Below, piece by piece: positions 8,230 through 64,000 of a stretch of DNA of 64,000 nucleotides. This stretch comes from Chromatiales bacterium (lineage in GTDB: Bacteria > Pseudomonadota > Gammaproteobacteria > SZUA-152): NCBI GenBank assembly GCA_027010265.1, contig JALVCE010000122.1, forward strand, positions 681 to 64,680, in the 5' to 3' direction. Positions within the stretch are counted from its first letter, which is position 1. Every line of letters starts with the position of its first letter. A program made the position numbers and the translations under genes. The notes beneath the pieces were generated by a model. It did no database searches, was not told the DNA's origin, and was given only the letters and a program-made list of their open reading frames with translations.

Positions 8230-8240
8230 GGTGCGTGTAT

Positions 8241-8335
8241 TTATTCATCGCCTCAAAATATTTACTCCAGAATGAGAATTCTCATGTGGGAGCGCCTTTC
8301 CAGGCACAATTCGCGCCTGGAAAGGCGCTCCTAGG
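8241..8335 (+). mobile_element. MITE-like element, truncated copy A (left end plus hairpin only)
   Basis: Left end TTATTCATCGCCTCAAAATA and hairpin 8287-8331 match copies B-F. The right half is missing or replaced. Confidence 0.6.
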
Positions 8336-8458
8336 GTATCTGATGTCGCATTTAGTACCCTAGGGTGGCCACGTATTTTGCGCCCATGGATTGCGCCCAT
8401 GGATAATATTTGCGCATCGTCTGGGCGGAGGATCCGTGCCCCTTCACCCTGCGGCGGT

Positions 8459-9124: not shown

Positions 9125-9226
9125 GATTGTCCTTGGTTATTATGCTGACAGTTATGCTGACAATATAGTACAAAGGCCGGGTTAAACAAACCGGCCTGGA
9201 TTGCGTGGCCGGGGGAAAATGATACA

Positions 9227-10981: not shown

Positions 10982-10990
10982 GGTTGTTGG

Positions 10991-11950: not shown

Positions 11951-12046
11951 AGATGTGATCGTCCTGATCGAGGGGGGTGAGGCTCACCTGTCCAGAAGCA
12001 TAGTTCATTTCCATGAAGGGTGCAGAAAAACACTGCATCAGACCGC

Positions 12047-12898
12047 TCAGTGTTCAATATCGAAGAATTCCAGGCACTCATCTGACAGGCACTCCCTGGC
12101 CTTGTCGAGAATGCGTTTTTCCTGGCTTGGCGATAATGTTGCCTTCCCTTCACCCACCTGGCCCTTACGGATAAAGGTGCCGGGCTTGAAAACAGGGTCG
12201 CCACTGGAGCGTTGGGCAGAGAAGCGCTTGTCGTTTTCCTTCATCCATCGGAAGGAGCAGAGTCTGAGGATGTTTTCACGCTGTGCGTCGGTGATATGCC
12301 AGTGCAGAAATGCAAGAATTCTGTCGATGCCGGCGGCAAGGTCTCTTTGCAGGTCTTCGTAGCGCAGCCAGAGTACATTTTCATCATTCCTGTGCGGCCA
12401 CCAACTGCTGACGTTACGATACCAACTGCCGAAGCCGAGCCAGTCATCCAGGTAGGCATCGAAGCTTTCGGGGTCGATCATGCCCATTTGCGCCTTTGAT
12501 TCATCGGTCATGTTCAGACGGTGGTGATAAAAACTCACACAGCAGTCGCGAGGATCCCGGGAGGTGAGAATGATGCGGGCAACACCCGTGCCCGGGGTTT
12601 GTTCATAGGTGCAATGGGTTTTGAAGATGCGCGGGTCGGGGATACGCTCGTAGTCGGCCAGTACCTCGGACCAGTGTCTACCATCGCGGGGGAGTTCCAG
12701 CCACGGTACCACATCATCAATGGATGTAAATGCTTCATCACCGCCGCTGCGCAACTGGTGCAGGATTTGCTGCATCCAGGTGGTACCGGCCTTGGCGGCC
12801 GTGGTGATGAGCACATCCGTGGGGCGCGGCCGGAAGTTTGCCAGCGCATAAGGGTCGTGGGTCGGGTCGGCCTTTCCCCATTTTTTGTCAATCTTCAT
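12047..12898 (-). CDS. PAPS-dependent sulfotransferase (Sulfotransfer_1-like)
   Basis: 5'-PSB loop TTAAKAGTTW and 3'-PB motif TSRDPRDCCVSFYHH. No signal peptide. Confidence 0.8.
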   Translation of the reverse strand: MKIDKKWGKADPTHDPYALANFRPRPTDVLITTAAKAGTTWMQQILHQLRSGGDEAFTSIDDVVPWLELPRDGRHWSEVLADYERIPDPRIFKTHCTYEQTPGTGVARIILTSRDPRDCCVSFYHHRLNMTDESKAQMGMIDPESFDAYLDDWLGFGSWYRNVSSWWPHRNDENVLWLRYEDLQRDLAAGIDRILAFLHWHITDAQRENILRLCSFRWMKENDKRFSAQRSSGDPVFKPGTFIRKGQVGEGKATLSPSQEKRILDKARECLSDECLEFFDIEH

Positions 12899-13016
12899 GT
12901 GCCCGGGAATGCTCCGTTGTAGCCTGCCTGGCGGTCTGGATGGCTTAACGTTTGTCCGTGATTGCCGTATATTGTCGCAATGAGTAGCTGTCTACAAGTC
13001 TTCTTTATGCTGACAC

Positions 13017-47553: not shown

Positions 47554-48822
47554 TCAAAAGTGAGTGTTGACCCCAAATGCAACGAGATGGGCAGAGAGCT
47601 TGTAAGTGCCATTGAAGGCATCGGTGCCGTTGGGGTCGGTATCCCCAGATCCCAGCCGGGTGAGATAACTGTTGGCCGGGGCATTGATTTCCCGGTCCTC
47701 GGCCTGGACGTACATGTAAGCGAATTCCACGGTCCAGCCGGCCTGTTCATGGGCCAGCCCCAGGCTGAAGGTTTGTCGGTCGTTGCCCGGTACCCGTGCG
47801 GAGAAAAAGTCGTCATTCCCAGGGGTTCCATCGAAGGAGTAACCGAAGCGTAACTGGTCGGTGGACGATAATTCATAGCTTCCTCCCAGTCGGTAGGCCG
47901 TGGCGTCTTTCCAGTCATTTCTGCTGATGATGGGGCTGCTCAGCGGGGGGCTGCTGGAGTGGTTGACCTCGATGGTGTCAAAACTGCTCCAGCCGGTGCG
48001 CTCAACATCCAGCTCCATGGCCAGTCGATCATTGAACTGATAACGCGCGCCCACCTGCAGCAGACTGGGAAAATCGATTTCCGCATCAGCATTGCTGACC
48101 GAGGAGCCAATCAGAGTGCCGTCAACGGTGCCATTGACCTTGACCTTCACGTTGGAACGATAAGACAGCCCCACGCTCCAGTTGTTTTGTGCATGCAGCA
48201 GGCCGATGTTCCAGCCGTAGTCCTGCCCGCTGCCGGAGATGCGGATGGACTGGGTATTGAAGATCAGTTTGCGCACTTGGTAATTGTCGATGCCCAGGGC
48301 GATGCTGGTATTGCCGAAACGATAGGCCACATTGGGGTTGACGTTGAGCATCTCGATCTTGCTGTGTTCGGGCTCCAGAAAGGCAACGCCAAGTGTAGCG
48401 AAGGTATCAAAGGTGCCCGCTTGCCAACGGGTTTCCAGGCCGAAGGGCGCATTGATGCCGACGCCCCATGACCAGTTGTTGTCGATGAGGTTACTGGCGA
48501 ACACATTGGGCACCGCTACAGTTTCTTTGCCCTGGCTGGCTACTGAGGTGCCTCCGTCCGGCGTCACACTGATATCGGGCTGGATGAAAATGGCCCCCAC
48601 CACAAGCTCGCCCTGTGTTTGAAATCCCGTCGCAGCGGGATTGTATGGCAGGGCGCCGGGAGTATCGGGATTAGCGACCATGGCATTGGACATGGCCGTG
48701 CCAGCGGTAGACAGCTCCGGCAGCCGGAAACCGGATGCCAGGGTGGCAGAGGAAAAGCTGGATGAAAACAAGACGCAGGACAGCACAGCGCCTGTTTGCA
48801 GATATGCACGAGTTTTTTTCAT
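47554..48822 (-). CDS. FadL/OmpP1/TodX-family outer-membrane transport protein
   Basis: Signal peptide, the N-terminal hatch motif GFRLPELSTAGTAMSNA..NPA, alternating beta-strand pattern, and a terminal F. Confidence 0.8.
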   Translation of the reverse strand: MKKTRAYLQTGAVLSCVLFSSSFSSATLASGFRLPELSTAGTAMSNAMVANPDTPGALPYNPAATGFQTQGELVVGAIFIQPDISVTPDGGTSVASQGKETVAVPNVFASNLIDNNWSWGVGINAPFGLETRWQAGTFDTFATLGVAFLEPEHSKIEMLNVNPNVAYRFGNTSIALGIDNYQVRKLIFNTQSIRISGSGQDYGWNIGLLHAQNNWSVGLSYRSNVKVKVNGTVDGTLIGSSVSNADAEIDFPSLLQVGARYQFNDRLAMELDVERTGWSSFDTIEVNHSSSPPLSSPIISRNDWKDATAYRLGGSYELSSTDQLRFGYSFDGTPGNDDFFSARVPGNDRQTFSLGLAHEQAGWTVEFAYMYVQAEDREINAPANSYLTRLGSGDTDPNGTDAFNGTYKLSAHLVAFGVNTHF

Positions 48823-49166
48823 GATATTTGTGGTCCGATAAAAGTCATTGGGTTGGCGTTTGTTTCCGCCGTATTAAATCATAAAAAACAAGATGGCGAT
48901 GTGGGTATTTTCGGATGTTTTTGCAGCACATCTTCTTATTGCCAATTACTGAGTTACTAAAAATAAGCAGATAATAATATTCTAAACAATATAACTAATA
49001 AATCGTTTATACGCTTATATAATAATTCGAGTATATTTAACGTTGACAGTGAGTAATATACGCACAGTCTTAAAAGATATAGTTTTAATATTGCTGAGGG
49101 ATGCATACTTGCCGGGATTGGCTTTTTTGATCTAACAAACGTTAATTGAATGTTATGGAGGTGGAT

Positions 49167-50465
49167 ATGAAGCGAACAATGAAGAGTCTTCTGGCGGTAA
49201 CAGTATCAGCAGCGCTGTGCACGCCGATAGCGGCAATGGCCACCAATGGTTATTTTGCGCATGGTTATGGCACCAAGAATAAAGGCCTGGCTGGAGCTGG
49301 TGTGGCGTTACCCCAGGATTCGATGATCGCAGCCACAAACCCTGCGGGGATGGTCTTTGTGGGTAATCGCCTGGATGTGGGTGCAGCCATTTTCAGTCCG
49401 AATCCGCGTTCTTACACTGTGACAGGAAATCCTTCGGGTGCCCCCGGCACGTTTGGACTGGCTCCCGGAAAAGTAGAAAGCGAGGATGGTGTTTTCCTGA
49501 TCCCCCATTTCGGCCGTAACTGGATGCTTGATGCCAACAGTTCGGTGGGTGTTACGGTGTATGGTAATGGTGGTATGAATACCGAATACAAAGGTACTCC
49601 CGGTACCTTTGGCGCAGGTACCGCAGGTGTGAATCTTGAACAGTTGTTTGTGGGCGTCACCTATGCCCGCAAGATCAATGATAAGGCCTCCTGGGGTGTG
49701 ACCCCGATTCTTGCTTACCAGCGTTTTAAGGCGGATGGTCTGGCGAATTTTGCGCCCTTCTCATTGGATGCCAATAATTTGACAAACAATGGCGTGTCCA
49801 CCAGTAGCGGATATGGTTTGAAGCTGGGTGTGCAGGGTGAGGCAGTACCGGGTGTGACCCTGGCAGCGTCTTACCAGAGCAAAATGTCCATGAGTGAGTT
49901 TGATGAATATTCCGGGTTGTTTGCAGAAAAGGGCGACTTTGATATTCCAGCAACGGCGACACTGGGCGTTGCCTGGGCAACATCAACCGATACGGTACTG
50001 ACCTTGGATCTTCAGAAGATCTATTACAGCACCATCGCTTCCATTGCGAATCCCATTTCCAACCTGACCAGCCCTACGGGTTGCGGTGGAGGTGATACTA
50101 CTCAGTGTCTAGGTGGTTCCAACGGCGCGGGTTTTGGTTGGGAAGACATGACTATCCTCAAGCTCGGTTATCAGTGGGCTACCAACAACGGTTGGACATG
50201 GCGCGCAGGTGTGAGCAAGGGCGATATGCCGATTCCTTCTTCCGAGGTTATGTTTAACATCCTTGCCCCAGCAGTGATGGAAAAACATTTCACCTTTGGT
50301 TTCACCAAGGAAGTGGGTACCGACAATGAGTTCAATTTCTCGGCCATGTATGCACCCAATGCCAGTGTCAAGGGCCCTAACCCCATGGAGGCGCCTGGCC
50401 AGCAGAGTATTGAGCTGGAAATGACCCAGTGGGAGCTGGAAGGCAGCTGGGCAGTCAAGTTCTAA
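49167..50465 (+). CDS. FadL/OmpP1/TodX-family outer-membrane transport protein (second, divergent)
   Basis: Signal peptide, NGYFAHGYGTKNKGLAGAGVA ... NPAG, and a terminal WAVKF. Start taken at MKRTMKS. Confidence 0.8.
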   Translation: MKRTMKSLLAVTVSAALCTPIAAMATNGYFAHGYGTKNKGLAGAGVALPQDSMIAATNPAGMVFVGNRLDVGAAIFSPNPRSYTVTGNPSGAPGTFGLAPGKVESEDGVFLIPHFGRNWMLDANSSVGVTVYGNGGMNTEYKGTPGTFGAGTAGVNLEQLFVGVTYARKINDKASWGVTPILAYQRFKADGLANFAPFSLDANNLTNNGVSTSSGYGLKLGVQGEAVPGVTLAASYQSKMSMSEFDEYSGLFAEKGDFDIPATATLGVAWATSTDTVLTLDLQKIYYSTIASIANPISNLTSPTGCGGGDTTQCLGGSNGAGFGWEDMTILKLGYQWATNNGWTWRAGVSKGDMPIPSSEVMFNILAPAVMEKHFTFGFTKEVGTDNEFNFSAMYAPNASVKGPNPMEAPGQQSIELEMTQWELEGSWAVKF

Positions 50466-50569: not shown

Positions 50570-51487
50570 ATGCTTATTAAAAGATTGCCGGCCCTGCTGC
50601 TTGCCGGCTTGCTGCTGGGTTTGGTGGGTGGCGCGCAGGCGGCTGAAAAATTGTTCCCCTTTGTACTGGCCTCAACCGGCTCGGGTGATGTGGCTGCGAC
50701 GCTGAGCGAGGTAAAGGCCAAGTTGAGTGGCGCGGGTTTCGAGCTGGTGGGGGAATATTCGCCCTACGATAAAGCAGTTATCCTCATCGTCACATCCGAG
50801 GCCCTGAAAAATGCGGCGGCGAAATCCACGTTTGGTGGCTATGCAGCAGGTCAGCGGGTTTCCGTTACCAAGGTGGGCGATGAGATTCAGGTTGCCTACA
50901 CCAATCCGGTGTACATGGCCAATGCCTACCGGATGAAAGTAACCTTGCAGGATACGGCAGACAGGTTAAAAGCCGCCTTGGGGGCTATAAAGCAATACGG
51001 TCCCGAAGAGGGGATGGAAGCGGAGGATATTCGCAATTACCATTACATGTTTGGCATGGAATACTTTGATGAACCCAGCGTGCTGGCGGAATATAAATCC
51101 TTCAAGGAAGCGGTTGATAGAGTGGAAGCGGGGCTGGCGGCCAAAAAGGGAGGAGTGTCCAAGGTATATCGTATCGATGTGCCTGGAAAGGATGAGAGTG
51201 TGTTTGGTGTCCATCTCACCGATGGCTGCAGCAGTGACAAGTTCATTATGGGGCATATTGATTTCAAGCCCATCCGTTCCACGCCTCACCTGCCTTATGA
51301 AATGCTGGTCTCCGGCAACAAGGTGTACGCGCTGTACGCACGCTTTCGTATCGCCATCAATTTTCCTGACCTGAAGATGATGGGCGCCAACAGTTTCTTT
51401 AAGATCATGTGTGCGCCGGATGCTATTGAAGAGGCCTTGATGCAGGCTGCCGGGGTGAACAAATCAACAGACGAGGACGAGTTCTGA
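50570..51487 (+). CDS. exported protein of unknown function
   Basis: Signal peptide LLLGLVGGAQA|AE. 305 aa with no motif I can name. Confidence 0.6.
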   Translation: MLIKRLPALLLAGLLLGLVGGAQAAEKLFPFVLASTGSGDVAATLSEVKAKLSGAGFELVGEYSPYDKAVILIVTSEALKNAAAKSTFGGYAAGQRVSVTKVGDEIQVAYTNPVYMANAYRMKVTLQDTADRLKAALGAIKQYGPEEGMEAEDIRNYHYMFGMEYFDEPSVLAEYKSFKEAVDRVEAGLAAKKGGVSKVYRIDVPGKDESVFGVHLTDGCSSDKFIMGHIDFKPIRSTPHLPYEMLVSGNKVYALYARFRIAINFPDLKMMGANSFFKIMCAPDAIEEALMQAAGVNKSTDEDEF

Positions 51488-51591: not shown

Positions 51592-52743
51592 TTACTTTGT
51601 CAGCAAGCGATCCAGCAGGCTTGGGTCGGATTCGCTGTAGGTTTTTATGAGCGCGCCGATCTGCGGGTTGTTCTCATTGGCCGCAATGGCTGCGGCGGTA
51701 TCGCCGAGAAGATTGGCGTGTTTCAAATCCGCATCATTGCGCAGTAACAACTCGGTGGTTTTGCGAAAACCACCCAGCACGGCGAGTTGCAGTGGCGAGT
51801 TACCCGTTGCGTTGGCGGTATTTATATTGGCGCCGGCATCGATCAGTGCCTGCAGCACGGCATAGTTACCACGCATTGCTGCAAAATGTATGGCGCTGTT
51901 GCCGGTATGTGTCACCAGGTTGGTGTCGGCGCCGTGGTTGATGAGCCATAGGGCCAGCTCGGTGTGATCCGCCTTGATGGCCCGCATCAGCGGTGTCTGA
52001 CCATGCTTGTCGGCACTGTCGATGTTGGCGCCGTTTTTTACCAATTGCCGGGTAATCACCATTTGGCCGCCGTCGGCCGCAAGCCACAGCGCGGATTCGC
52101 CATGCTTGTCGGTGGCATTTATCGCAGCCCCGAACTGTAAAAGTAATTGCGAGATACGTGGATAGCCCAGCCGCGCGGCGATGCTTAAAGCGGTTCTGCC
52201 CTGGTGGGTTTTTATGTCTGGGTTGGCATGATTCTTCAGCAAATAACGCACCACAGGGCGATGGCGCATGCGTACGGCCCACATCAATGGTGTTCGGCCA
52301 TGATTATCCTGACTGTCGAGCTGCGCCCCCTTCTGATGCAGTAACATGACGGTTTTGCGGTGTCCCTGCCGTGAGGCCCAGGCCAAGGCGGACAGTCCGT
52401 CTTTATCCCGTTGATTGATGGCGGCGCCCTGTTTGAGCAGGACTTTCAGGGTGTCCTGATTGCCATTCCACGCGGCGTAAATCAGTGCGCTGCGTCCGTC
52501 TTCATCCATGGCATTGATATTGTGCGGCTTTTTCAGCAGGCGCGTCACAATTTCCGGTTGTCCACGCCAGGCGGCATACATTAATTCGGTCCAGCTGCTG
52601 AACAGCTTGGACTTGGGGTTGTCAATGGGGTGGCCGGCATGCGCAACGGAAGAACTATACAGCGCTACTAACCCTGCCAGCAGTAGTGCTGTGGACAATC
52701 TTCCCATGGACGGGGTGAGCATTGATCTGCGGATGGTCTGCAT
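51592..52743 (-). CDS. periplasmic ankyrin-repeat protein
   Basis: Signal peptide (LLLAGLVALYSSSVAHA) followed by about 9 ankyrin repeats (G.T.LM.A......V..LL..GA). Start trimmed to ATG 52743. Confidence 0.85.
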   Translation of the reverse strand: MQTIRRSMLTPSMGRLSTALLLAGLVALYSSSVAHAGHPIDNPKSKLFSSWTELMYAAWRGQPEIVTRLLKKPHNINAMDEDGRSALIYAAWNGNQDTLKVLLKQGAAINQRDKDGLSALAWASRQGHRKTVMLLHQKGAQLDSQDNHGRTPLMWAVRMRHRPVVRYLLKNHANPDIKTHQGRTALSIAARLGYPRISQLLLQFGAAINATDKHGESALWLAADGGQMVITRQLVKNGANIDSADKHGQTPLMRAIKADHTELALWLINHGADTNLVTHTGNSAIHFAAMRGNYAVLQALIDAGANINTANATGNSPLQLAVLGGFRKTTELLLRNDADLKHANLLGDTAAAIAANENNPQIGALIKTYSESDPSLLDRLLTK

Positions 52744-52941
52744 TGTTGCTGGGGGACTCCTTGTTGCTTTCTGTGCTGGCAGGGTGTCGAACTGTTGAGC
52801 CAGCCTGGTGGCCCACTTATACTGCAATTCTGCGCGGCGGAAAACCATGGGTCTGATTTTTCGAAAACAGCGGTAAGCAGGGGCCGAGTCCTGGGCGATA
52901 AGTTCCAAAGTTAGGTAGACAGTTCCTGAAGTAGAGCAAAG

Positions 52942-54384
52942 GTGATAATGGGCAATCCATGTAGTACCCAATCTGGCAGGGGTCCCCACCCAATCTGGCA
53001 GGTCATTGCATCGCTGATAGTGTTACAGGCGTTTGCCAGTCTGGTGTCTGCCGATGACGATCCAGCGTACGGTTCCCTTGATGAAACCCCTTCCGCCTTT
53101 GCCTTTTTCAGGGAACAGGCCGAGCAGGGCAGTGAGGAGGCGCAATACAATCTGGCGGTGATGTATGAGACAGGCTGGAGCGTGGCGGTCAATCATCGGC
53201 AGGCCGTTCGCTGGTTTCGAGAGGCGGCCAGACAGGGCAATGTGAACGCCCAGCTGCGTTTGGGTATGCTCTATTACCTGGGGCTGGGCGCCCGGCAGAG
53301 TAATATCAAGGGCGAAAAATGGATACGCAAGGCGGCAAAGCAGGGGCATCCCCTGGCGAAAGAACTGAATCGTCTGCTGTTTAAGGAAGAATTGCCCGAT
53401 GGCTTGTCCGCGGCGACAGTAATGTCCCGTGTGCGTGATGCCTATCTGGCGGATGAGCAATCGGCGGGAGCAGTGCTGGCGTCTATTACCCGACAGGCCC
53501 AGCGCAAGAATGAGCGGCTTGCCGAACAAAAAGAAGAGACCACCATCCGTGAGCGCAGGGCTCAGCGTGGCATTGAAGGCCCGGTGAGACCCGGTTTTTC
53601 CCCTGCGCAAAGTGTGGAACGCATTGGCAGTGCAGTGCCTGACTTTATCTCTGATGACTCAGTGGAAAAAAATCAAACCCTGTCCCGTGGCAACATAGCC
53701 ACACTCCGGCTTCAGGCGGAGCGGGGCCTGGCCAGTGCGCAATACAGTCTGGGGCGGATGTATGAAACCGGCCTGAAGTTGCCTGTGGACAAAAAGCGGG
53801 CCATGGAATGGTATGAGAAAGCCGCCCGCCAGGGATACGCGGATGCGGAATATCGTCTGGGTATTGCGCTGTACTATGGCACCGGCCCCACTCGTGATGA
53901 AGAAGAAGGTAAAAAATGGTTACGGCTGGCGGCCGGGCACGGTCATCCGGTGGCGAAAAATATGATGAATAAACTGGACGGGGAAGGTGTCGCCGCAACG
54001 CGTAATATGTCACTGGCGGTTCGGTGGTATCTTGAGCGCGCCACGCAAGGTGATCGTGAAGCCGCGTTTCACCTGGGAAAGATTTATGAACATGGCTGGG
54101 GTGTAAGCGGCGATCTTTCCGAAGCGTTTAAATGGTACCGGCTGGCCGCGCAGTCAGGGAATGAGCAGGCACAGTTACTGGTCTCGCAATTGCAGCCGCG
54201 CTTGGGTGAGAGAAAGGAAGAGGATCCGCCGTCATGGCTGGCAACACAACTGTCAGGCTATGGTTTGCCGCAATGGCTGGCGCATCCGCTGGTCATTGCA
54301 TCCATCGTTCTGGTGATTGTCTGGCCCTTACGACCGTGGCGCCGGAAAAAGGGACAGACCAATGGTGAGCTGCCCGAACCGTAG
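52942..54384 (+). CDS. Sel1-repeat (SLR/TPR-like) protein with C-terminal TM anchor
   Basis: Signal-like N-terminus, repeated AQYNLAVMYETGWGV / A..WY.KAA.QG units, and a terminal TM followed by RRKK. Confidence 0.85.
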   Translation: MIMGNPCSTQSGRGPHPIWQVIASLIVLQAFASLVSADDDPAYGSLDETPSAFAFFREQAEQGSEEAQYNLAVMYETGWSVAVNHRQAVRWFREAARQGNVNAQLRLGMLYYLGLGARQSNIKGEKWIRKAAKQGHPLAKELNRLLFKEELPDGLSAATVMSRVRDAYLADEQSAGAVLASITRQAQRKNERLAEQKEETTIRERRAQRGIEGPVRPGFSPAQSVERIGSAVPDFISDDSVEKNQTLSRGNIATLRLQAERGLASAQYSLGRMYETGLKLPVDKKRAMEWYEKAARQGYADAEYRLGIALYYGTGPTRDEEEGKKWLRLAAGHGHPVAKNMMNKLDGEGVAATRNMSLAVRWYLERATQGDREAAFHLGKIYEHGWGVSGDLSEAFKWYRLAAQSGNEQAQLLVSQLQPRLGERKEEDPPSWLATQLSGYGLPQWLAHPLVIASIVLVIVWPLRPWRRKKGQTNGELPEP

Positions 54385-54404: not shown

Positions 54405-55772
54405 TTACAAAGTACCGCGTTTGGTTTCGATTTCAACGCCCAGTGACTTGAGCATGGGGGTGGGCAGGATGCCGCCGGCACAAACAATGACGGCATCATT
54501 TTCAATAGTGACCTCTCCATCTTCCGTATTGATAGTTACCTGCTTCTCTGTAATTTCCTTTACTGTGGACTTGAGTAAGACAGTCATTTTCTTGGCATTG
54601 GCCGAGGCGCTGACCTTGTCGACATTTTTCGGGTTTGCCTTGGCGAATGCACCACTGCGGTAAGAAAGGGTGACGGTAGCACCGGGTTCGTCGGCGATGG
54701 TGATAGCGGCTTCCAGGGCACTGTTTCCGCCGCCCACCACGAGAACGTGTTTGTTGCGGAATTCCGCGGGGTCCGCAAGACGGTAAATGACCTTGCTTTG
54801 TTCTTCACCGGGGACACCCAGCTTGCGGGGGGTGCCGCGTCTGCCAATGGCCAGCAATACACTTTTTGTGTGATACGTGGCTTTGGGGCTCGTTACCATA
54901 AAACCATCTCTGGTTTTCTCGATGGATTCCATGCGTTCCATGCAATTGATCCTGACACCGGTTTGCTTTTCCACGTTTTGCCAGAAATCCATGAGGATTT
55001 CCTTGGTGGTTTCATTGAATTTTGCCTGGCCGACAATGGGTAACAATACCGGCGCGGTCATGACAATTTTTCCTCGGGGGAAATGTGCCACTGTCCCCCC
55101 CAGGGTTTCCTGTTCCAGGGTGACATAATTCAGGTTATGTTCGTGGGCATCGAGGGTGGCGGAAAAGCCGGCCGGGCCTGCGCCGATGATCACGACGTCA
55201 TAGGGAACGCTGGACTGGGAGTTGCTGATGGCCTGGCGGATGGACTCCATGGCCTGGCGTCCCTGCTCAATGGCGTTGCGAATCAGACCCATGCCGCCAA
55301 GCTCGCCGGCAACAAACAGACCGGGTACGTTGGTTTCGAAATTGGGGTTCAACATGGGGATATCGACACCCCGTTTTTCATTTCCGATCACCAGGGAGAT
55401 GGCATCCGTGGGGCAAGCCGTCTTGCAGGCGCCGTGGCCGATGCAGTGGCTGGGGTTGACCAGGTGCGCCTTTTCACGAATCACGCCGAGAACATTGCCT
55501 TCCGGACAGGCGTCCACACAGGTGGCGCAGCCAAGGCAGATGTTGTGGTCGATGATGGGGTGCAGTGAAGTGGGGGGATCGGCCAGGCCCGCCTGTTTGG
55601 ATTCTTCCAGGATGCGCTGGCTCTGTTCGTCACGTCGTTTTTTTACGGCACGATAGATGAACCACGCCAACGCAATGGGCACCAAAAAGACCAATACATC
55701 ATAGGCACTGTTTATGCCCGCCACCGACAGCAAATACAGTATGTCGGTGAGAAACTCAGAGCGTTGTTCCAT
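54405..55772 (-). CDS. membrane-anchored 2x FeS ferredoxin-domain / FAD-NAD(P)H oxidoreductase (TrxR-like fold)
   Basis: N-terminal TM followed by KKRRDE (cytoplasmic body), CLGCATCVDACP and CIGHGACKTACP, then DVVIIGAGPAG (FAD) and VLVVGGGNSALEAA (NAD(P)H). Confidence 0.85.
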   Translation of the reverse strand: MEQRSEFLTDILYLLSVAGINSAYDVLVFLVPIALAWFIYRAVKKRRDEQSQRILEESKQAGLADPPTSLHPIIDHNICLGCATCVDACPEGNVLGVIREKAHLVNPSHCIGHGACKTACPTDAISLVIGNEKRGVDIPMLNPNFETNVPGLFVAGELGGMGLIRNAIEQGRQAMESIRQAISNSQSSVPYDVVIIGAGPAGFSATLDAHEHNLNYVTLEQETLGGTVAHFPRGKIVMTAPVLLPIVGQAKFNETTKEILMDFWQNVEKQTGVRINCMERMESIEKTRDGFMVTSPKATYHTKSVLLAIGRRGTPRKLGVPGEEQSKVIYRLADPAEFRNKHVLVVGGGNSALEAAITIADEPGATVTLSYRSGAFAKANPKNVDKVSASANAKKMTVLLKSTVKEITEKQVTINTEDGEVTIENDAVIVCAGGILPTPMLKSLGVEIETKRGTL

Positions 55773-56093
55773 AATCCGTTATCTGTAACCCATAAAGAAA
55801 TCATGGTGATTGAGCGACTCTTGTGTATTTCGGTGCATTTCGGGGCTTGTACACACTGGCCCCGGGGCGCCGCCGATATAGTGGGTCGTTTTATGAAAAT
55901 CAATCACTTGTGGGAAACATATCCTTGCTGATGCCTAATTGCAATGCCTCTCGAGCGCATTGACAAGGGCCGGACGCTAGGGGATACAATGGCGTCACGT
56001 GGCCAAATATGGCACGGAAGCGGTATTTCATGCCCAGGTATTGTTCAACCTCGGTTGCTCAACGGGGGCTTTACATGGAGCAAATGCAGTCAT

Positions 56094-56852
56094 ATGAGCA
56101 GCCAATCCTCTTTTCTCACATGGTTACGTCATCCCGCCAGCATGGTGCTGATCATCGCCCTGGTGCTGATGCTTGTGGTGATGTCCGAACAATCGCCCCG
56201 GCAAGGGGATGGCACCACGGCGCCACCCCTGGCGCCTGAGCCCGCCAGCGTCGAGGCGGCACCGGCAGGCGCGCCGGCGGCCCCGGCCAGGATGGGTGGG
56301 GAATTGCCACGCATCGTGCGTCAGTTATCCGCCCCTGGGCAGAGCGCACCGGCGGCGAAAAAACCAGGCAGCGCCGCAGCCCCCGGCCGGTTACAGGCCC
56401 CCGATCTGGGCAGCCTGCTGGGTCGGCTGGAGGACAAGGTGAAGGCTGAACCCAGCAATATGGGCAATCGCCTATTGCTCGCGCAGACCTATAACGAACT
56501 GGGCCTGGGGGACAAGGCGCTGCAGGAGGCGCGCGCTGCCCGGCAGCAGGATCCCCGGCATGCCCGGGCCAAGCTGGTGTTGGCCGCTATTCTCAGTACC
56601 CGTGATGACCCGGCCGGTCTGCAGGAGGCCGCAGAGCTGTTGCAGGAACTGACCAGTGATTCCCAAATCAAACAATACCTGGTGGCCATGTACCAGGGGG
56701 ATGTGGCCATTCGCCAGGGCGATCATGACAAGGCGCTGCGTTTTTGGCAGCGGGCGCTGGATGAGATGCCGGTATCCGATAATCGTCGTGCCAGTATTGA
56801 AAAGCGCGTTGCTGAGCTGTCCGCCAAGGCATCTTCATCGGTTGAGGGCTGA
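56094..56852 (+). CDS. membrane-anchored Pro/Ala-rich TPR protein (CcmI/NrfG-like?)
   Basis: A TM (MVLIIALVLMLVVM), a P/A-rich linker, then TPR-like helices (LLLAQTYNELGLGDKALQEA...). Start uncertain: the ORF is open from 55944. The functional analogy is inference only. Confidence 0.6.
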   Translation: MSSQSSFLTWLRHPASMVLIIALVLMLVVMSEQSPRQGDGTTAPPLAPEPASVEAAPAGAPAAPARMGGELPRIVRQLSAPGQSAPAAKKPGSAAAPGRLQAPDLGSLLGRLEDKVKAEPSNMGNRLLLAQTYNELGLGDKALQEARAARQQDPRHARAKLVLAAILSTRDDPAGLQEAAELLQELTSDSQIKQYLVAMYQGDVAIRQGDHDKALRFWQRALDEMPVSDNRRASIEKRVAELSAKASSSVEG

Positions 56853-57030: not shown

Positions 57031-58074
57031 GTGACAATGATGCTGTTTTTCAGATTCGCCAAACAGGAAGCGGTGGGTACCGAAGAGGGTGCGTCATTTT
57101 CGGCGGGGTCGGCGAAGATGAACGGTAGCCAGCAGGCGGGGGCGCTTACCCCGGCAACGCCCCCTTTGGAATTTTCCGCGGTGAAACTGCTGTCCGACCG
57201 CTACCCTTCTTTTATCGCCCGCGCCAACGAGGCCCGCTCGAAAAGTGAGTCACGGATCGTACTCATCGTTCTGTTGTTCATTTCTGCCCTGATGCTGGCC
57301 GCCTGGGCTGTCTGGGATCCGCGTTATTTTCACTCCGACAGCGACCTGGTGTACAACATGGGACTCTTCGGCGGCATCATGATGCTGGTGACCCTGCTCT
57401 ACGCCATGCGCAAGCGGATTCGTCTGATGCGAAAACTCGGCGAGCTGAGTTACTGGTATTACTTGCATCTGACCATGGGTGTGCTGGGTCCGGTGCTGAT
57501 CATTTTTCACAGTTCATTCACCATGAAGTCGCTGAACAGCTCGGTGTCGATGATCGCCATGTTGTGTATTATCGCCAGTGGTATTTTTGGTCGATACGTC
57601 TATACCCGCATTGGTTATCGCGTGCACAGTCATCTTCTGGCGATTCGTGATACGGAAGAACGCCTGGCCAGGGCAATGGAAAATTTCCAAGGTAAGGAAA
57701 CAGACGCCATTCGCAAATCCCTTACAGTGTTGACCATGTTGGTGGTGAACATGCCGCAATCACTGTTCCATTTGCCTGCGCGTTTTTTCGCGCTGCGCGC
57801 CAGGGCCGCCAAGTGTTATGTCGACGGGATCGGGCATATTTCAGCCATGTTAAAACAGCGCGCGCAGGAGGAAGACTGGGACAAGCTGACGTACCATGCG
57901 GAGTTTGCGCGGGAAAAGCGCCTGTTTCGTGAGCATATCAATGCCCTGGTGAAAATCGGCCAATTGCATTTTTATGAACGATTGCTGGTGGGTTGGCGAA
58001 TTTTTCATGTTCCCCTGATCTTTATTCTGGTCATCTCGGGACTGGTGCATGTTTTTGCGGTGCACTGGTATTAA
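57031..58074 (+). CDS. 5-TM membrane protein with two H-x13-H motifs (putative di-haem b electron-transfer subunit)
   Basis: TM3 is YLH-LTMGVLGPVLIIF-H and TM5 is FH-VPLIFILVISGLV-H. Both are predicted to run in the same direction by the positive-inside rule. I do not recognise the family. Confidence 0.65.
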   Translation: MTMMLFFRFAKQEAVGTEEGASFSAGSAKMNGSQQAGALTPATPPLEFSAVKLLSDRYPSFIARANEARSKSESRIVLIVLLFISALMLAAWAVWDPRYFHSDSDLVYNMGLFGGIMMLVTLLYAMRKRIRLMRKLGELSYWYYLHLTMGVLGPVLIIFHSSFTMKSLNSSVSMIAMLCIIASGIFGRYVYTRIGYRVHSHLLAIRDTEERLARAMENFQGKETDAIRKSLTVLTMLVVNMPQSLFHLPARFFALRARAAKCYVDGIGHISAMLKQRAQEEDWDKLTYHAEFAREKRLFREHINALVKIGQLHFYERLLVGWRIFHVPLIFILVISGLVHVFAVHWY

Positions 58075-59680
58075 GCATTTTCTTTTTCTGGTCTTCCTTC
58101 TTGCCCGTCTCCCGGGCAGGGCGATAGTTTCTGTCCTGTTGCTGGGCTTATGTCTGACCCCGCTGGCCGAGGCGGGTGTTAGTCCCCTGGAGAGGATGGA
58201 GGGTTTGGTGATGCCGGGCAAGGTCATCAAGCGCCATGCAAAATTTGAAAAGAAATGTGACAAATGTCACTCCGGGTTTGACCGCATGAAGCAAAGCGGG
58301 CAATGCAGGGATTGCCACAAGGCCATCGCCACGGACATCAAAAAAAGCCGTGGCTTTCACGGCAAGATTCCCCGCATCAAGGAGCGTGAATGCCGCACCT
58401 GCCACTCGGAGCATCTGGGACGCGATGCGGACATCGTGCAGCTGGATAAAGAATTATTCGACCACAATAAAACCGAGTTCAAGCTGGCCGGCGCCCATGT
58501 TTCGCTTGATTGCAACGAGTGCCACAAGAAGGTAGGCGTTTACCGTCAGCCGGAGCGCCATTGTTCCGATTGTCACGAGTCGGACGAGCCCCACAAGCAG
58601 CGTATGGGCAAGAAGTGCGAAAACTGCCACATCGAAGGCGCCTGGCTGCCGGCCTTTTTTGATCATTCCAACACCAAGTTCAAGCTGCGAAATGCGCATC
58701 GCGAATCGGCCTGTTTCAACTGCCATGTCAATGAGCGTTATGACGACACACCTCGCAATTGCTACTTTTGTCACCATCTCGATGATGTGCATAACGGGGA
58801 TCGCGGGATTCGCTGTCACGATTGCCATACCGACGAGCGCTGGTCGCAGATTCTTTTCGATCATGAAAAAGATACGGATTTTCCCCTCAGGGGTGGCCAT
58901 GCGCGGCTCATTTGCAAGGATTGTCACCAAGGACACATCTTTGAGGATGAGGTAAAAACCACCTGCTACGGCTGTCACGAAAAGCATGACGTACATTTCA
59001 AGCGTTATGGCAAGCGCTGCGATGTGTGTCACACAGAGAAGAACTGGATCGAGATTGATTTTGATCATGAGGTGGATACCAGCTTCCCGCTCAAGGGCAA
59101 ACACAAGGATTTAAGTTGCGCCGTCTGTCACCGGGAGGTGTTGTTCGAGGAACAGACCCCCAATACCTGTTCCGACTGTCATCGCCTGGATGACGCCCAT
59201 GAGGGTCAGGAAGGGGAGCAGTGTGAGCAATGTCATAATGAAAAAGGCTGGACCGAGCAGGTGGTTTTTGATCATGACATTACCAAGTTCCCCCTCCTGG
59301 AATCCCATATTTTGCTGACTTGCGAGGATTGCCATGCCTCGAATAAATTCAAGGAAGCCAAGGTGGCGTGTACTTCCTGCCATGAAGGCGATGATGTACA
59401 CGAGCAAAAACTGGGGGAACAGTGCGAACTTTGTCACCAGCCGTCTCACTGGATGGCCTGGGACTTTGATCACAACGAATTGACGGATTTCCCACTGGAT
59501 GGCAAGCACGAAGGCCTGGATTGCCATGCCTGCCACACCGAGCCGGTGGATGAAGAAATCGAATTGCCGAAGAACTGCTACGGGTGCCACGAAAAGGACG
59601 ATGTGCACAATACCCAGTTGGGCAAGCGCTGCGAAACCTGCCACATCACGGAGTCATTCAAAGAGATCAAGATCAAGTAG
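58049..59680 (+). CDS. 21-haem c-type cytochrome built from c7-like trihaem modules
   Basis: Signal peptide, 21 CXXCH motifs, and six FDH-x(4-6)-F-x-L-x-G/S-x-H-x4-CXXCH repeats. Overlaps the upstream gene by 26 nt. Confidence 0.9.
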   Translation: MFLRCTGIKHFLFLVFLLARLPGRAIVSVLLLGLCLTPLAEAGVSPLERMEGLVMPGKVIKRHAKFEKKCDKCHSGFDRMKQSGQCRDCHKAIATDIKKSRGFHGKIPRIKERECRTCHSEHLGRDADIVQLDKELFDHNKTEFKLAGAHVSLDCNECHKKVGVYRQPERHCSDCHESDEPHKQRMGKKCENCHIEGAWLPAFFDHSNTKFKLRNAHRESACFNCHVNERYDDTPRNCYFCHHLDDVHNGDRGIRCHDCHTDERWSQILFDHEKDTDFPLRGGHARLICKDCHQGHIFEDEVKTTCYGCHEKHDVHFKRYGKRCDVCHTEKNWIEIDFDHEVDTSFPLKGKHKDLSCAVCHREVLFEEQTPNTCSDCHRLDDAHEGQEGEQCEQCHNEKGWTEQVVFDHDITKFPLLESHILLTCEDCHASNKFKEAKVACTSCHEGDDVHEQKLGEQCELCHQPSHWMAWDFDHNELTDFPLDGKHEGLDCHACHTEPVDEEIELPKNCYGCHEKDDVHNTQLGKRCETCHITESFKEIKIK

Positions 59681-59929
59681 GCGGATCCTGGGGTTGGTTA
59701 TGGGTAGTAACCACGTGCTTTCTACGGTTAATTCGCCCCCGGTGGGACTCGTCTGCCGGGTGTAATTAGCCTATAGTATAAACCTACAATAATACTCGGA
59801 AATGAGGCGGTGTCCGGCGTTTCAGCAAGAGCCGGACGCCTGTGGGTCGAGGCCTGCTGTGTGGCCTTGTGTGCAACAGGATGTAACACAACGTAGGGGG
59901 TAGGCAGTATCAGGGTAGATGCTGTCAAA

Positions 59930-62900
59930 ATGTTGGGTAATCAGGGAGTGGGGCGGTCTGTTTCTGGCCGGCTGGGGATGCTGTTGTGCCTGCTGTTTAT
60001 GGTTATCTTTTCAGCTCCCCTCAGTGCTGCTGTGGTGCCTGATGTTTCGACCTTTGATCACCTGGTTACGGGTTTTCCTCTCGAAGGCCAACATGACATC
60101 ATCGATTGCGAGGCCTGCCACATCGGTGGTGTATTCGAGGTTCTGCCCACCCAGTGCGAGGCCTGTCATGATGGCATACTGGCCATTGGTCAGCCCCCTA
60201 CGCATATTCCCACCCTGGTTTCCTGTGACACCTGCCACAATGCGGTGGGCTTTGCCTTTTCCGCCACCATGGATCACAGCATCATCGGTGATACGACGTG
60301 TGAAACCTGCCATGATGGTGTCAGTGCCACCGGCCTGTCGCCCACGCATATTCCCACCAGCTTGAGCTGCGGCACCTGCCATGTCACCAGTACCTGGTTG
60401 ATAGCGGCGTTCGATCACTCCCTGGTGCAGGAACAGTCGTGCAGTGATTGCCACAACGGCACCTTTGCCACGGGCAAGCATGCGGCGCACATCAACACTA
60501 CGGATGTCTGCGAAAGCTGCCACACCAGTGTGGCCTGGGTGCCGGTGATTGTGGTGGACCATGCCCAGGTGCTGGGTAGCTGCGAAAGTTGCCATGATGG
60601 GTTGATCGCCAGGGGCAAGGGAGTGAATCATGTGCCAACCACTCTGGCCTGTGATACCTGCCATACGGTGAACAACTGGACGGTAGGTGTGTTCGATCAC
60701 TCCACCACCAGCGAGGCCTGTTACACCTGTCACAACGGCACCATCGCCACAGGGGTGAGCGCCAGCCACATCGCCACCACCAAGCAGTGCGATGCCTGTC
60801 ACCTGACCAACCTGTGGGTGCCGGTGTCCACTGTGGATCACGCACAGGTGCTGGGCAGTTGTGTGTCCTGTCACGACGGTGTGGTGGCCACGGGCAAGAA
60901 CCCCACGCACATCGACAGCTCGGATCTCTGCGAGACCTGCCACAGCGCCGAGCTGTGGATTCCCGCCACCACGGTGGATCACGGGCAGGTGAATGGCAGC
61001 TGCGCGAGTTGTCACGACGGTGTGATTGCCAGGGGCAAGGGCGCGACACACATTCCCACCACCGCGGCCTGCGAGCTTTGTCACACGGTCAACGACTGGC
61101 TGGTGGGCGCCTTCGATCACACCGGCATCACCGAGCCCTGCGCAACCTGCCACGATGGCGTCTCGGCGTCGGGCAAGGGCGCAACCCACATCAACACCAC
61201 GGATGTTTGCGAGGCCTGCCATGGGGTCACGGCCTGGGTGCCGGTGAATCCGTTGACGGATCACGCGCAGGTCATCGGCACCTGTGAGAGTTGCCACGAT
61301 GGCGTCATCGCCACCGGCAAGGGCATCAACCACATACCCACCACGGCGGCCTGCGAAGTGTGCCATAGCACCACGGACTGGCTTGTGGCGGTGTTCGATC
61401 ACACCACCACCACGGATGCGTGCGAAACCTGCCATGACGGCACCCTCGCTACCGGCAAAAATGCCACGCATATTCTCACCAGCGATGTGTGTGCCGCCTG
61501 TCATAACGACAGCGGCTGGGTGCCGGCCACCACCGTGGATCACAACGAAACCAAGGGCACCTGCCAGAGCTGTCACGATGGGGTGATCGCCACCGGCAAG
61601 ACCGACAAGACCGGCAGCCACATCAACACCACGGAAGTGTGCAACGCCTGTCACTCGCCGGTGGGCTGGTTGCCGGTGACGCTGGTAGACCATGCCGAAG
61701 TTATCGGCACCTGCGAATCCTGTCACGACGGGGTGAGCGCCAGGGGAGTGGGGCCGACGCACATTCCCACTACCGAGGCCTGCGATGTTTGCCACACGAC
61801 CGTGGACTGGACCGTGGCCGCGTTCGATCACAGCGGCGTGACTGCCGCCTGTATCAGTTGTCATGACGGTGTAACGGCAAGTGGTAAGCTCTCTTTGAGT
61901 GGCGTCCATATCGATACCAGCGACCTGTGTGAAGCCTGCCACGGCACGGCGGCCTGGTCGCCGGCCACGGCGGTGGACCACAACGAAGTGGTGGGTACCT
62001 GCCAGAGTTGTCACGACGGGGTGATCGCCTCGGGCAAGGGCGCCACGCATATTCTCACCAGTGACCTGTGCAACGCCTGCCATGTGTCCACCGCCTGGGT
62101 GCCCGCCACCACGGTGGATCACAACGAAACCCAGGGCACCTGCCAGAGCTGTCACGACGGCGTCATCGCCACCGGCAAGACCGATACCCACATCAACAGC
62201 TCGGATCAGTGCAACGCCTGCCACGCGCCCACCGGTGGCTGGGTGCCCACCATTGCGGTGGATCACAACGAGGTGATCGGCGTCTGCGCCTCCTGCCACG
62301 ACGGGGTGATCGCCACCGGTGTTGGCCCGACCCACGTGCCCACCACCGAGCCCTGCGATGTCTGCCACACCACGGTGGACTGGACGGTGCCGGCCTTTGA
62401 TCATTCCACCACCACTGCGGCCTGTATCAGTTGTCACGACGGCACTGTTGCTACAGGCATGAGCGCCACCCATATCAGCACCTCGAATCTCTGCGAGGCC
62501 TGTCATGTGGATACGGCGTGGATTCCCGCCAGCGCCGTGGATCACAACGAGATCACCACCGTGGGAGTGTGCGAGGCCTGCCATGACGGGGTGATCGCCA
62601 GCGACAAGTCCGCCACGCATATTCTCACCAGCGACGTGTGCGCCGCCTGTCACACGGTCACCGCCTGGGTGCCGGTGACCACGGTGGATCACAACGAGAC
62701 CCAGGGCATTTGCCAGAGTTGCCACGACGGCGTCATCGCCACCGGCAAGACGGACAAGACCGGCAGCCACCTCAACACCACGGAACAATGCAACGCCTGC
62801 CACTCGCCGGTGGGCTGGCTGCCGGTTACCCGGGTGGATCACAACGAGGTCATCGGCAGCTGCGAGTCTTGTCATGACGGCGTGCTGGCCACGGGCAAGG

Positions 62901-64000
62901 GACCCACCCACGTGCCCACGGTGGAGGCCTGCGAAGTGTGTCACCTGGTGACCACCTGGCTGGTGCCCAGCTTCGATCACAGCACCACCACGGACACCTG
63001 CATCACCTGTCACGATGGCATAACGGCAACTGGGAAATCAGCCAGCCACATCAACAGCAGCGATGTGTGCGAGGCCTGTCATTCGAGCCTGGTCTGGGCG
63101 CCGGTGGATCCGCTGGTGGATCATGCCCAGGTGCTGGGCAGTTGCGAGAGTTGCCACGACGGGGTGATCGCCACCGGCAAGGGCGCCACCCATGTGCCCA
63201 CGGTGGAGCCCTGCGAGGTGTGCCACTCCACCACCAACTGGTTCGTCACCGCCTTTGATCACAGCACCACCACGGACACCTGCATCACCTGCCACGACGG
63301 GGTCAGCGCCTCGGGCAAGGGGCCAACCCACATTCGCAGCAGCGATCTCTGCGAGGCCTGTCATAACAACACGGCCTGGGCGCCGGCCACGGCGGTGGAT
63401 CACAACGAGACCATGGGCACCTGCCAGAGTTGTCACGACGGGGTGATCGCCACGGGCAAGAACGCCACCCACATCGACACCAGCAACGTGTGCAATGCCT
63501 GTCACTCGCCCATCGGCTGGGTGCCGGTGACTACTGTGGATCACGCCCAGGTGAACGGCCTGTGCACCGCCTGCCACGACGGGGTCATTGCCACCGGCAT
63601 GGGCCCCACCCACGTGGCCACCAGCGCACCCTGCGATACCTGCCACACCACGGACAACTGGCTGGTGCCGTTGTTTGATCACAGCACCACCACCGACACT
63701 TGTATCACTTGCCATGATGGCATAACGGCCACCGGCAAGTCGGCCACCCATATCGACACCTCCGATGTGTGCGAGGCCTGTCACGTGGATACCGCGTGGA
63801 TCCCCGCCAGCGCGGTGGATCACACTGAAATCACCAATGTGGCGGTGTGCGAGGCCTGCCACGATGGCGTGATTGCCGTGGGTAAAGGCACAACACATAT
63901 CAACACCAGCGACATCTGCAACAGCTGCCATACCCCGGCGGCCTGGGCGCCGGCCAGTGCGGTGGATCACAACGAGGTGCAGGGCACCTGCCAGTCATGC
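59930..64000 (+). CDS. giant multihaem c-type cytochrome, 5' part only (open at window end)
   Basis: The + frame (codon starts congruent to 2 mod 3) has no stop from 59897 to 64000; I checked it codon by codon. Signal-like MLGNQGVGRSVSGRLGMLLCLLFMVIFSAPLSAA. 55 complete CXXCH motifs plus one cut by the window edge, in ~47-aa units. Absent from the ORF track because it has no in-window stop. Confidence 0.85.
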   Translation, partial: MLGNQGVGRSVSGRLGMLLCLLFMVIFSAPLSAAVVPDVSTFDHLVTGFPLEGQHDIIDCEACHIGGVFEVLPTQCEACHDGILAIGQPPTHIPTLVSCDTCHNAVGFAFSATMDHSIIGDTTCETCHDGVSATGLSPTHIPTSLSCGTCHVTSTWLIAAFDHSLVQEQSCSDCHNGTFATGKHAAHINTTDVCESCHTSVAWVPVIVVDHAQVLGSCESCHDGLIARGKGVNHVPTTLACDTCHTVNNWTVGVFDHSTTSEACYTCHNGTIATGVSASHIATTKQCDACHLTNLWVPVSTVDHAQVLGSCVSCHDGVVATGKNPTHIDSSDLCETCHSAELWIPATTVDHGQVNGSCASCHDGVIARGKGATHIPTTAACELCHTVNDWLVGAFDHTGITEPCATCHDGVSASGKGATHINTTDVCEACHGVTAWVPVNPLTDHAQVIGTCESCHDGVIATGKGINHIPTTAACEVCHSTTDWLVAVFDHTTTTDACETCHDGTLATGKNATHILTSDVCAACHNDSGWVPATTVDHNETKGTCQSCHDGVIATGKTDKTGSHINTTEVCNACHSPVGWLPVTLVDHAEVIGTCESCHDGVSARGVGPTHIPTTEACDVCHTTVDWTVAAFDHSGVTAACISCHDGVTASGKLSLSGVHIDTSDLCEACHGTAAWSPATAVDHNEVVGTCQSCHDGVIASGKGATHILTSDLCNACHVSTAWVPATTVDHNETQGTCQSCHDGVIATGKTDTHINSSDQCNACHAPTGGWVPTIAVDHNEVIGVCASCHDGVIATGVGPTHVPTTEPCDVCHTTVDWTVPAFDHSTTTAACISCHDGTVATGMSATHISTSNLCEACHVDTAWIPASAVDHNEITTVGVCEACHDGVIASDKSATHILTSDVCAACHTVTAWVPVTTVDHNETQGICQSCHDGVIATGKTDKTGSHLNTTEQCNACHSPVGWLPVTRVDHNEVIGSCESCHDGVLATGKGPTHVPTVEACEVCHLVTTWLVPSFDHSTTTDTCITCHDGITATGKSASHINSSDVCEACHSSLVWAPVDPLVDHAQVLGSCESCHDGVIATGKGATHVPTVEPCEVCHSTTNWFVTAFDHSTTTDTCITCHDGVSASGKGPTHIRSSDLCEACHNNTAWAPATAVDHNETMGTCQSCHDGVIATGKNATHIDTSNVCNACHSPIGWVPVTTVDHAQVNGLCTACHDGVIATGMGPTHVATSAPCDTCHTTDNWLVPLFDHSTTTDTCITCHDGITATGKSATHIDTSDVCEACHVDTAWIPASAVDHTEITNVAVCEACHDGVIAVGKGTTHINTSDICNSCHTPAAWAPASAVDHNEVQGTCQSC

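Follow-up and report, generated by a model that had tools for sequence, protein, structure and literature searches.

Near the 3' end of the window, a 64,000-nucleotide stretch of contig JALVCE010000122.1 from a Chromatiales bacterium (assembly GCA_027010265.1), a gene for a membrane protein with five transmembrane (TM) helices is followed on the same strand by two genes for multihaem cytochromes c. Its sequence makes the membrane protein a new member of the family formed by the inner membrane protein (IMP) of PCC3 clusters, which is known but uncharacterised. We consider it likely that this PCC3 IMP is a two-haem membrane cytochrome passing electrons across the inner membrane to the 21-haem periplasmic cytochrome encoded next to it. 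The gene, its motifs and the two cytochrome genes lie as follows.

57031..58074, plus strand: PCC3-type IMP, 347 aa, five TM helices, N-terminus inside and C-terminus outside; candidate di-haem cytochrome b.
57454..57510, plus strand: TM3 motif W142-x3-H146-x13-H160; H146 is the cytoplasm-proximal and H160 the periplasm-proximal haem ligand candidate.
57577..57591, plus strand: TM4 motif S183-G184-x-x-G187 (S183-G184-I-F-G187), then R188 and Y191; small residues level with the inner His pair.
57607..57990, plus strand: helical domain on the cytoplasmic side, residues ~193-320; TM4 and TM5, extended far beyond the membrane, form it together with two more helices.
57994..58065, plus strand: TM5 motif W322-x3-H326-x13-H340, with the near-invariant H345 at the periplasmic end.
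58049..59680, plus strand: periplasmic multihaem cytochrome c, 21 CxxCH, c7-type repeats; overlaps the IMP gene by 26 nt.
59897..64000, plus strand: giant multihaem cytochrome c, at least 55 CxxCH in 1,368 codons; still open at the last position of the window.

The PCC3 cluster and its "conserved inner membrane protein" were defined by He, Barco, Emerson and Roden in 2017 (PMC5566968), who place the same family in PCC4 clusters as well. The IMP that they describe has five TM helices, carries the SGXXG motif on TM4 and shows WX3HX13H on both TM3 and TM5; they draw comparisons to the FRD domain (PF01794), to NOX and to bc1 cytochrome b, and propose two b-type haems and quinone activity for it. 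Every published feature tested was found in the window protein, namely a five-TM core of ~300 aa, both WX3HX13H motifs, SGXXG and homology. By BLASTP, it is 32% identical over 279 aa (E 2e-42) to P0236, a Gallionellaceae PCC3 IMP. In the Gallionellaceae cluster, the IMP gene is followed by genes for a 606-aa multihaem cytochrome with 24 haems, a 741-aa multihaem cytochrome with 25 haems and a 797-aa barrel. The cytochromes of the window fit the PCC3 pattern too, with an adjacent periplasmic multihaem cytochrome (the published median is 21 haems) and a larger second one. A large outer-membrane porin gene also belongs to the PCC3 pattern. In the window, the giant cytochrome gene is cut off by the end of the stretch; downstream in the relative L001, a 762-aa protein shows homology to the barrel of the Gallionellaceae PCC3 cluster (E 3e-25). 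The initial annotation of this DNA had called the protein unrecognised, which does not hold, given that PMC5566968 had already described the family, its motifs and its likeness to FRD/NOX. The annotation's observation is right and its reading of the motifs as a bis-haem site is reasonable, but both repeat the 2017 publication.

Another member of the family comes from Sideroxyarcus emersonii, and Slit_1446, the IMP of Sideroxydans lithotrophicus ES-1, is reported as detected in proteomes (PMC11429942). In published data on iron-oxidising Sideroxydans CL21, the IMP gene of PCC3 copy 2 was up-regulated and was the sole PCC3 gene with a significant change. The window protein and the PCC3 IMP share the five-TM core, the TM3, TM4 and TM5 motifs and a gene setting made of a ~21-haem periplasmic cytochrome and a larger outer cytochrome. 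The window branch differs in a poorly ordered N-terminal extension of ~70 aa and in a much larger outer cytochrome, with at least 55 haem motifs.

The IMP open reading frame (ORF) starts with GTG, and ATG at codons 3 and 4 provides alternative possible starts. It encodes a 277-aa core behind the 70-aa N-terminal extension. A script run on the translation located H146-x13-H160 in TM3, inside YLHLTMGVLGPVLIIFH, and H326-x13-H340 in TM5, inside FHVPLIFILVISGLVH, at the spacing first reported for the two helices. W-x3-H-x13-H is present on both. The tryptophan one turn ahead of each first histidine, the SGxxG of TM4 and the near-invariant H345 had been overlooked. Five hydrophobic segments, at about residues 74-96, 105-125, 142-163, 170-192 and 320-346, agree with the helices of an AlphaFold2 model built from 41 homologues (mean pLDDT 82.5, pTM 0.74), which span residues 64-94, 105-127, 139-160, 168-217, 222-239, 248-281 and 285-346. 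In this model, TM4 and TM5 run on as long helices into the cytoplasmic domain, and a helical insert of ~130 residues separates them. The domain is modelled with pLDDT mostly above 85 and is kept as far as the Gallionellaceae IMP; its sequence contains no cofactor motif.

The orientation of the helices follows from the distribution of lysine and arginine. By manual count, the TM2-TM3 loop "MRKRIRLMRK" holds six such residues, the TM1-TM2 and TM3-TM4 loops hold one each, and the C-terminal tail holds none. Because of this distribution, the N-terminus is placed inside and the C-terminus outside, with TM3 and TM5 parallel from inside to outside; the counts agree with the common direction proposed for these two helices earlier. 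The periplasmic loops are at most 12 residues long, and the C-terminus lies seven residues past H340. With invariant histidines on two parallel helices, the arrangement into one cytoplasm-proximal and one periplasm-proximal pair also stands.

A homologue search over 5.8 billion proteins returned 80 IMP homologues, all unnamed or "hypothetical" and mostly from gammaproteobacterial metagenome-assembled genomes. The invariant residues of a 41-sequence alignment were the four histidines, W142, G153, F163, G184, G187, R188, Y191 and W322; in a 44-sequence alignment reaching down to 24% identity, they were the four histidines, S183, G184, G187, W322 and H345. We then counted residues in 237 sequences aligned to the hidden Markov model of the IMP family, over the sequences covering each column. 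The four histidines on which the initial annotation had built its proposal were conserved in every covering sequence (H146 and H160 in 237/237, H326 and H340 in 235/235). The tryptophans were nearly as constant (W142 229/237, W322 235/235), as was TM4 (S183 234/237, G184 237/237, G187 232/237, R188 229/237). Four other histidines, H101, H199, H201 and H313, vary freely across the same 237 sequences. Since the motif histidines are invariant while the other histidines vary, the four-His pattern is under selection and not a product of chance. H345 (58063-58065), five residues past H340, was found in 230 of 234 sequences, within "HVxAVHxY"; it does not appear in the PCC3 IMP motif as published. 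It may contact the propionates of the outer haem or the cytochrome partner.

Counted by an exhaustive profile search of clusters at 50% identity, the IMP family comprises 3,908 clusters at E<=1e-3, a number that falls to 2,286 at E<=1e-10 and further to 770 at E<=1e-30; it has no Pfam or NCBIfam model. The long N-terminal extensions of some members carry TPR or SPOR domains, and no fusion to an iron-sulfur (FeS) or flavin domain was found among them. The genomes of some relatives (L022, L063) encode a second, orphan IMP paralogue in an unrelated context with no cytochrome gene nearby, and one of these paralogues adjoins an IS21-type insertion.

The pairing of IMP with cytochromes extends well beyond the window. 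In most of 83 related loci, the 21-CxxCH ORF lies directly 3' of the IMP gene, and the gene after it encodes a cytochrome with 9-87 haem motifs. In the window, both the 21 CxxCH motifs and the first ATG of the ORF, 26 nt ahead of the IMP stop codon, were found as first described. The translational coupling suggested from this overlap is plausible, but such closeness is an ordinary operon feature: the cytochrome start lies within 30 nt of the IMP stop in 45/69 relatives, and the genes overlap in 4/69. The giant cytochrome, presumed to be the outer or extracellular PCC3 cytochrome, is built of c7-type and paired-CXXCH repeats. Because this gene is repetitive and GC-rich, the 1000-aa ORF that lies opposite to it (60011-63013, minus strand) is probably no more than its shadow.

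We compared the IMP with known cytochrome b families at the level of profiles. Whole-protein searches gave no match to PF01794 at E<=1, and sub-threshold matches to DUF6057 and DUF3611 were judged spurious. The cytoplasmic insert was then removed in silico, and 22 TM cores (residues 100-196 plus 314-347) were scanned against Pfam at a permissive threshold, with the same 22 sequences reversed as the control. DUF4405 (PF14358) matched 16/22 cores (best E 8e-4) and PF01292 (prokaryotic cytochrome b561 / Ni_hydr_CYTB) matched 6/22 (best E 9e-4), each with 0/22 in the reversed control. Both TM hairpins, TM2-3 and TM4-5, were able to match DUF4405 weakly. PF01794 matched 1/22 cores (E 0.079) and 1/22 reversed sequences (E 0.14); because the control scores alike, this signal is noise. 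PF00033/PF13631 (cytochrome b of bc1/b6f) were absent among the whole-protein and TM-core matches even at E<=10. At this level of similarity, the DUF4405/b561 signal is weak but above control. DUF4405 and PF01292 are the nearest curated families by sequence and have four central histidines in common with the IMP; models of DUF4405 proteins show six TM helices, and the known links of these proteins are to flavinylation systems rather than to multihaem cytochromes. A purified DUF4405 protein has been shown to bind haem b, and DUF4405, MsrQ-like and PepSY-like cytochromes are reported to share a four-His TM core (PMC11334425). The IMP may be remotely related to this group.

These comparisons bear on whether the IMP is a true, very divergent member of the FRD superfamily (NOX/FRE/STEAP/MsrQ) that lost TM6 and gained the cytoplasmic helical insert. 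The geometry speaks for such an origin. In the IMP and in the FRD of these proteins, two histidines each are carried by TM3 and TM5, which share their index and their in-to-out orientation, and the H-x13-H spacing equals that of yeast FRE and of NOX TM3 (general knowledge; PMC5566968); the IMP spacing is 13/13, and that of FRD TM5 is 12-13. TM5 of E. coli MsrQ also reads W-x3-H-x12-H after an "RKLG" loop, and the "RKLG..W...H" piece was the sole stretch that hhalign aligned, not significantly, between the two. The TM core reported as shared by the MsrQ-like, PepSY-like and DUF4405 proteins (PMC11334425) points the same way, given the weakly DUF4405-like core of the IMP. Homology searches speak against it. 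Beside the noise level of PF01794, hhalign gave a probability of at most 0.4% with MsrQ, itself a PF01794 member, in a weak test whose MsrQ alignment was shallow (close enterobacterial relatives only), and no similarity to YodB. No MsrQ homologues occurred in the fetched related loci. Foldseek returned no NOX or STEAP match in the top 50, the IMP has five helices where the FRD has six and carries the ~130-aa insert between TM4 and TM5, and the searches gave no significant similarity in sequence, profile or fold. We therefore regard FRD ancestry as unlikely. Of the NOX/ferric-reductase match put forward in the initial annotation, the helix index, orientation and 13-residue spacing stand, and the homology does not: on the present analysis, the likeness is geometric, and homology is not demonstrable.

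Structure searches gave a similar picture. The whole-protein profile against PDB sequences produced coiled-coil noise only, and the TM-core profile produced only a melatonin receptor (E 0.02), a chance TM match. Foldseek of the IMP model against the PDB found nothing at E<1e-3 and no NOX or STEAP in the top 50, with the long cytoplasmic helices dominating the model. Its best matches were ABC-exporter, BAR and sensor helical bundles, all non-significant; cytochrome b561 (4o6y), at rank 43 with E 2.2, was meaningless. The matches to helical-bundle sensor domains and ABC-exporter TM domains could be taken to mean that the conserved histidines bind a metal ion or serve sensing or transport without haem, with the cytoplasmic four-helix bundle as a signalling module. 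No output domain accompanies the bundle, however, the IMP is almost always paired with multihaem cytochromes, and its similarity to haem-b families is above control level. Four invariant histidines on two parallel TM helices beside a Gly/Ser helix are, moreover, the classic bis-haem signature. A role without haem thus seems extremely improbable.

The description of the IMP as a haem protein has its own counterweights. The literature searched yielded no biochemical data on any IMP family member, and the published accounts found include no purification or cofactor analysis. No Pfam or NCBIfam model matches the whole IMP above threshold, the DUF4405 and PF01292 similarities all fall below the Pfam gathering scores, neither the family profiles nor Foldseek found a sequence or fold match in the PDB, and no quinone-site motif was identified in the IMP. 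From its sequence features, the IMP is best described as a candidate di-haem cytochrome b of its own family.

Cytochrome b of bc1/b6f carries two H-x13-H helices and one helix with conserved small residues between them, and holds two stacked haems. The two H-x13-H helices and the intervening small-residue helix are common to the IMP. The His helices of the IMP are oppositely directed relative to the N-terminus, as inferred from known topologies, and the IMP lacks a Rieske or cytochrome c1 partner. For the role of the IMP, the closest parallels are the inner-membrane quinol dehydrogenases of extracellular electron transfer, CymA/ImoA, CbcL and ImcH, which link the inner membrane to periplasmic multihaem cytochromes. 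The presumed role of the IMP is the same. In sequence, they are unrelated to the IMP, being either c-type (NapC/NirT) or b/c fusions resembling FdnI, and for the IMP, quinone interaction is a hypothesis. Transmembrane electron transfer, established for the FRD, is predicted for the IMP, and its presumed periplasmic partner is a multihaem cytochrome c.

The analysis shows to which family the IMP belongs, that its motifs are invariant, how its charges orient the helices and which genes accompany it; from these features, we infer that it binds haem, how many haems it holds, with which partner it works and which way the electrons flow. Two haems b would be bound by bis-His ligation between TM3 and TM5. 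H146 and H326 would hold the inner haem near the cytoplasmic face, and H160 and H340 the outer haem near the periplasmic face. The haem irons would be ~21 Å apart, because 14 residues rise by 1.5 Å each. The small residues of the TM4 SGxxG may pack against the inner haem. Because the periplasmic loops are very short, the outer haem would lie just under the periplasmic surface, where it could trade electrons directly with the co-transcribed 21-haem cytochrome. This cytochrome would in turn connect to the giant cytochrome and to the porin of the cluster. On the cytoplasmic side, the partner of the inner haem could be the quinone pool, as He et al. proposed (PMC5566968). For the branch to which the window belongs, a second option is a flavoprotein encoded divergently upstream.

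54405..55772, minus strand: FeS-flavoprotein "FerFAD", 455 aa; divergent from and upstream of the IMP gene.

FerFAD begins with an N-terminal TM anchor followed by basic residues. It carries the cluster motifs CxxCxxCxxxCP (all-Cys [4Fe-4S]) and CxxHxxCxxxCP, that is, two [4Fe-4S] clusters, and an FAD/NAD(P)H domain of TrxR-like type. Among solved structures, YpdA/Bdr and the TrxR-type ferredoxin-NADP reductases come nearest to FerFAD. The second motif reads CxxHxxCxxxCP in 134/134 homologues, and the anchor is present in most. FerFAD occurs in most of the 83 IMP loci, usually adjacent to and divergent from the IMP gene, at 48-86% identity against 27-73% for the IMP. At one locus, from a Thermodesulfobacteriota, the two genes share a strand, FerFAD being upstream of the IMP gene, with Sel1 and ankyrin homologues between the two and the cytochrome genes after them. 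The reverse test began with FerFAD homologues from metagenomes; where 4 kb or more of upstream sequence was present (n=42), 36/42 FerFAD loci carried the IMP. FerFAD is missing at the Gallionellaceae PCC3 cluster. Drawn from synteny, the FerFAD-IMP linkage appears to be the only possibly new element of this analysis, and the PCC3 literature examined contains no mention of it. P0079, a distant IMP relative, adjoins a small 4Fe-4S protein and c7-type cytochromes. Because an Fe-S gene also stands beside PCC4 IMPs, according to He et al. (PMC5566968), FeS partners may be a recurring theme.

No flavin or NAD(P)H domain is fused to the IMP; the separate membrane-anchored FeS/FAD/NAD(P)H protein is linked to it by synteny. 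A precedent for such a split system is MsrQ, whose flavin reductase, Fre, is a separate protein of the cytosol. We tentatively suggest, on the strength of gene order and domain content, that IMP and FerFAD could form a two-component NOX-like enzyme in the gammaproteobacterial PCC3 branch. Electrons would pass from NAD(P)H to FAD, the FeS clusters, the inner haem b, the outer haem b, the 21-haem cytochrome and the wire of at least 55 haems, and the conserved cytoplasmic helical bundle of the IMP would be the docking site of FerFAD. As in NOX, the membrane potential would assist outward electron flow from NAD(P)H, and inward flow from typical extracellular donors to NAD(P)+ would be strongly uphill. 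With FerFAD as partner, the system would export electrons.

Further conserved genes surround the IMP and FerFAD.

55944..56852, plus strand: membrane-anchored TPR protein, CcmH/CycH TPR-like; directly upstream of the IMP gene, true start probably internal at ~56094.
52942..54384, plus strand: Sel1-repeat protein with signal peptide and C-terminal TM helix; kept in part of the related clusters.
51592..52989, minus strand: ankyrin-repeat protein with a segment resembling a signal peptide; probably begins at ~52740, adjoins FerFAD in most related loci.
49146..50465, plus strand: FadL/TodX-type outer-membrane barrel; conserved upstream in the closest relatives.
47554..48822, minus strand: FadL/TodX-type outer-membrane barrel; conserved upstream in the closest relatives.

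FerFAD, the ankyrin, Sel1 and TPR proteins and the two FadL-type barrels are extra conserved genes here and are missing from the Gallionellaceae cluster. In the closest relatives, conservation upstream of the cluster also takes in a 305-aa protein with no Pfam match, encoded at 50570-51487 (plus strand). The TPR gene is conserved in the closer relatives, and its product matches PF23914 at E 1e-10 (42.1 bits, cut-off 42). In P0120 (687 aa), TPR repeats are fused N-terminal to an IMP core, mirroring the TPR gene directly upstream of the window's IMP gene. The ankyrin, Sel1 and TPR repeat proteins may be assembly factors for the giant cytochromes.

This setting raises the question of whether the IMP itself serves to assemble or mature the giant cytochromes and is no part of the working electron path, for example, a haem-reducing or haem-handling protein acting with the CcmH/CycH-like TPR protein. 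The same-strand gene directly upstream, the P0120 fusion and the several periplasmic repeat proteins of the cluster would fit that role, and CcmF uses a TM bis-His haem b (general knowledge). The TPR gene is limited to closer relatives, however, whereas the pairing of IMP and multihaem cytochrome is found throughout, and the copy-2 IMP was the only significantly changed PCC3 gene in iron-oxidising CL21 cells. The IMP also lacks a WWD motif, and none of its periplasmic loops exceeds ~12 residues. We consider an assembly role very unlikely. Its specific form, haem handling in the manner of the WWD proteins CcmC/CcmF/CcsA, was ruled out by periplasmic loops of at most 12 residues without a Trp-rich motif.

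Elsewhere in the window, positions 8000-13000 have a G+C content of 0.45-0.53, compared with ~0.55-0.64 in the rest, and encode a CHASE histidine kinase, an ABC substrate-binding protein and a sulfotransferase. This segment may be acquired DNA.

Herein, the analysis adds no new kind of protein; it places the window protein, as an electron-transferring membrane cytochrome candidate, in clusters that are widespread among iron oxidisers, sulfur-oxidising symbionts and sediment Gammaproteobacteria and whose multihaem cytochromes are in part among the largest known. For the inner-membrane link between PCC3 wires and cell metabolism, the IMP is the sole candidate. The targets for mutagenesis are sharpened to the four invariant histidines, the two tryptophans, SGxxG and H345. 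In one large branch of the family, a conserved flavoprotein partner would make NAD(P)H, and no longer quinol, the source from which electrons are expected. If IMP and FerFAD do form one enzyme, cytoplasmic reducing power would leave the cell bypassing the quinone pool, helped by the membrane potential.

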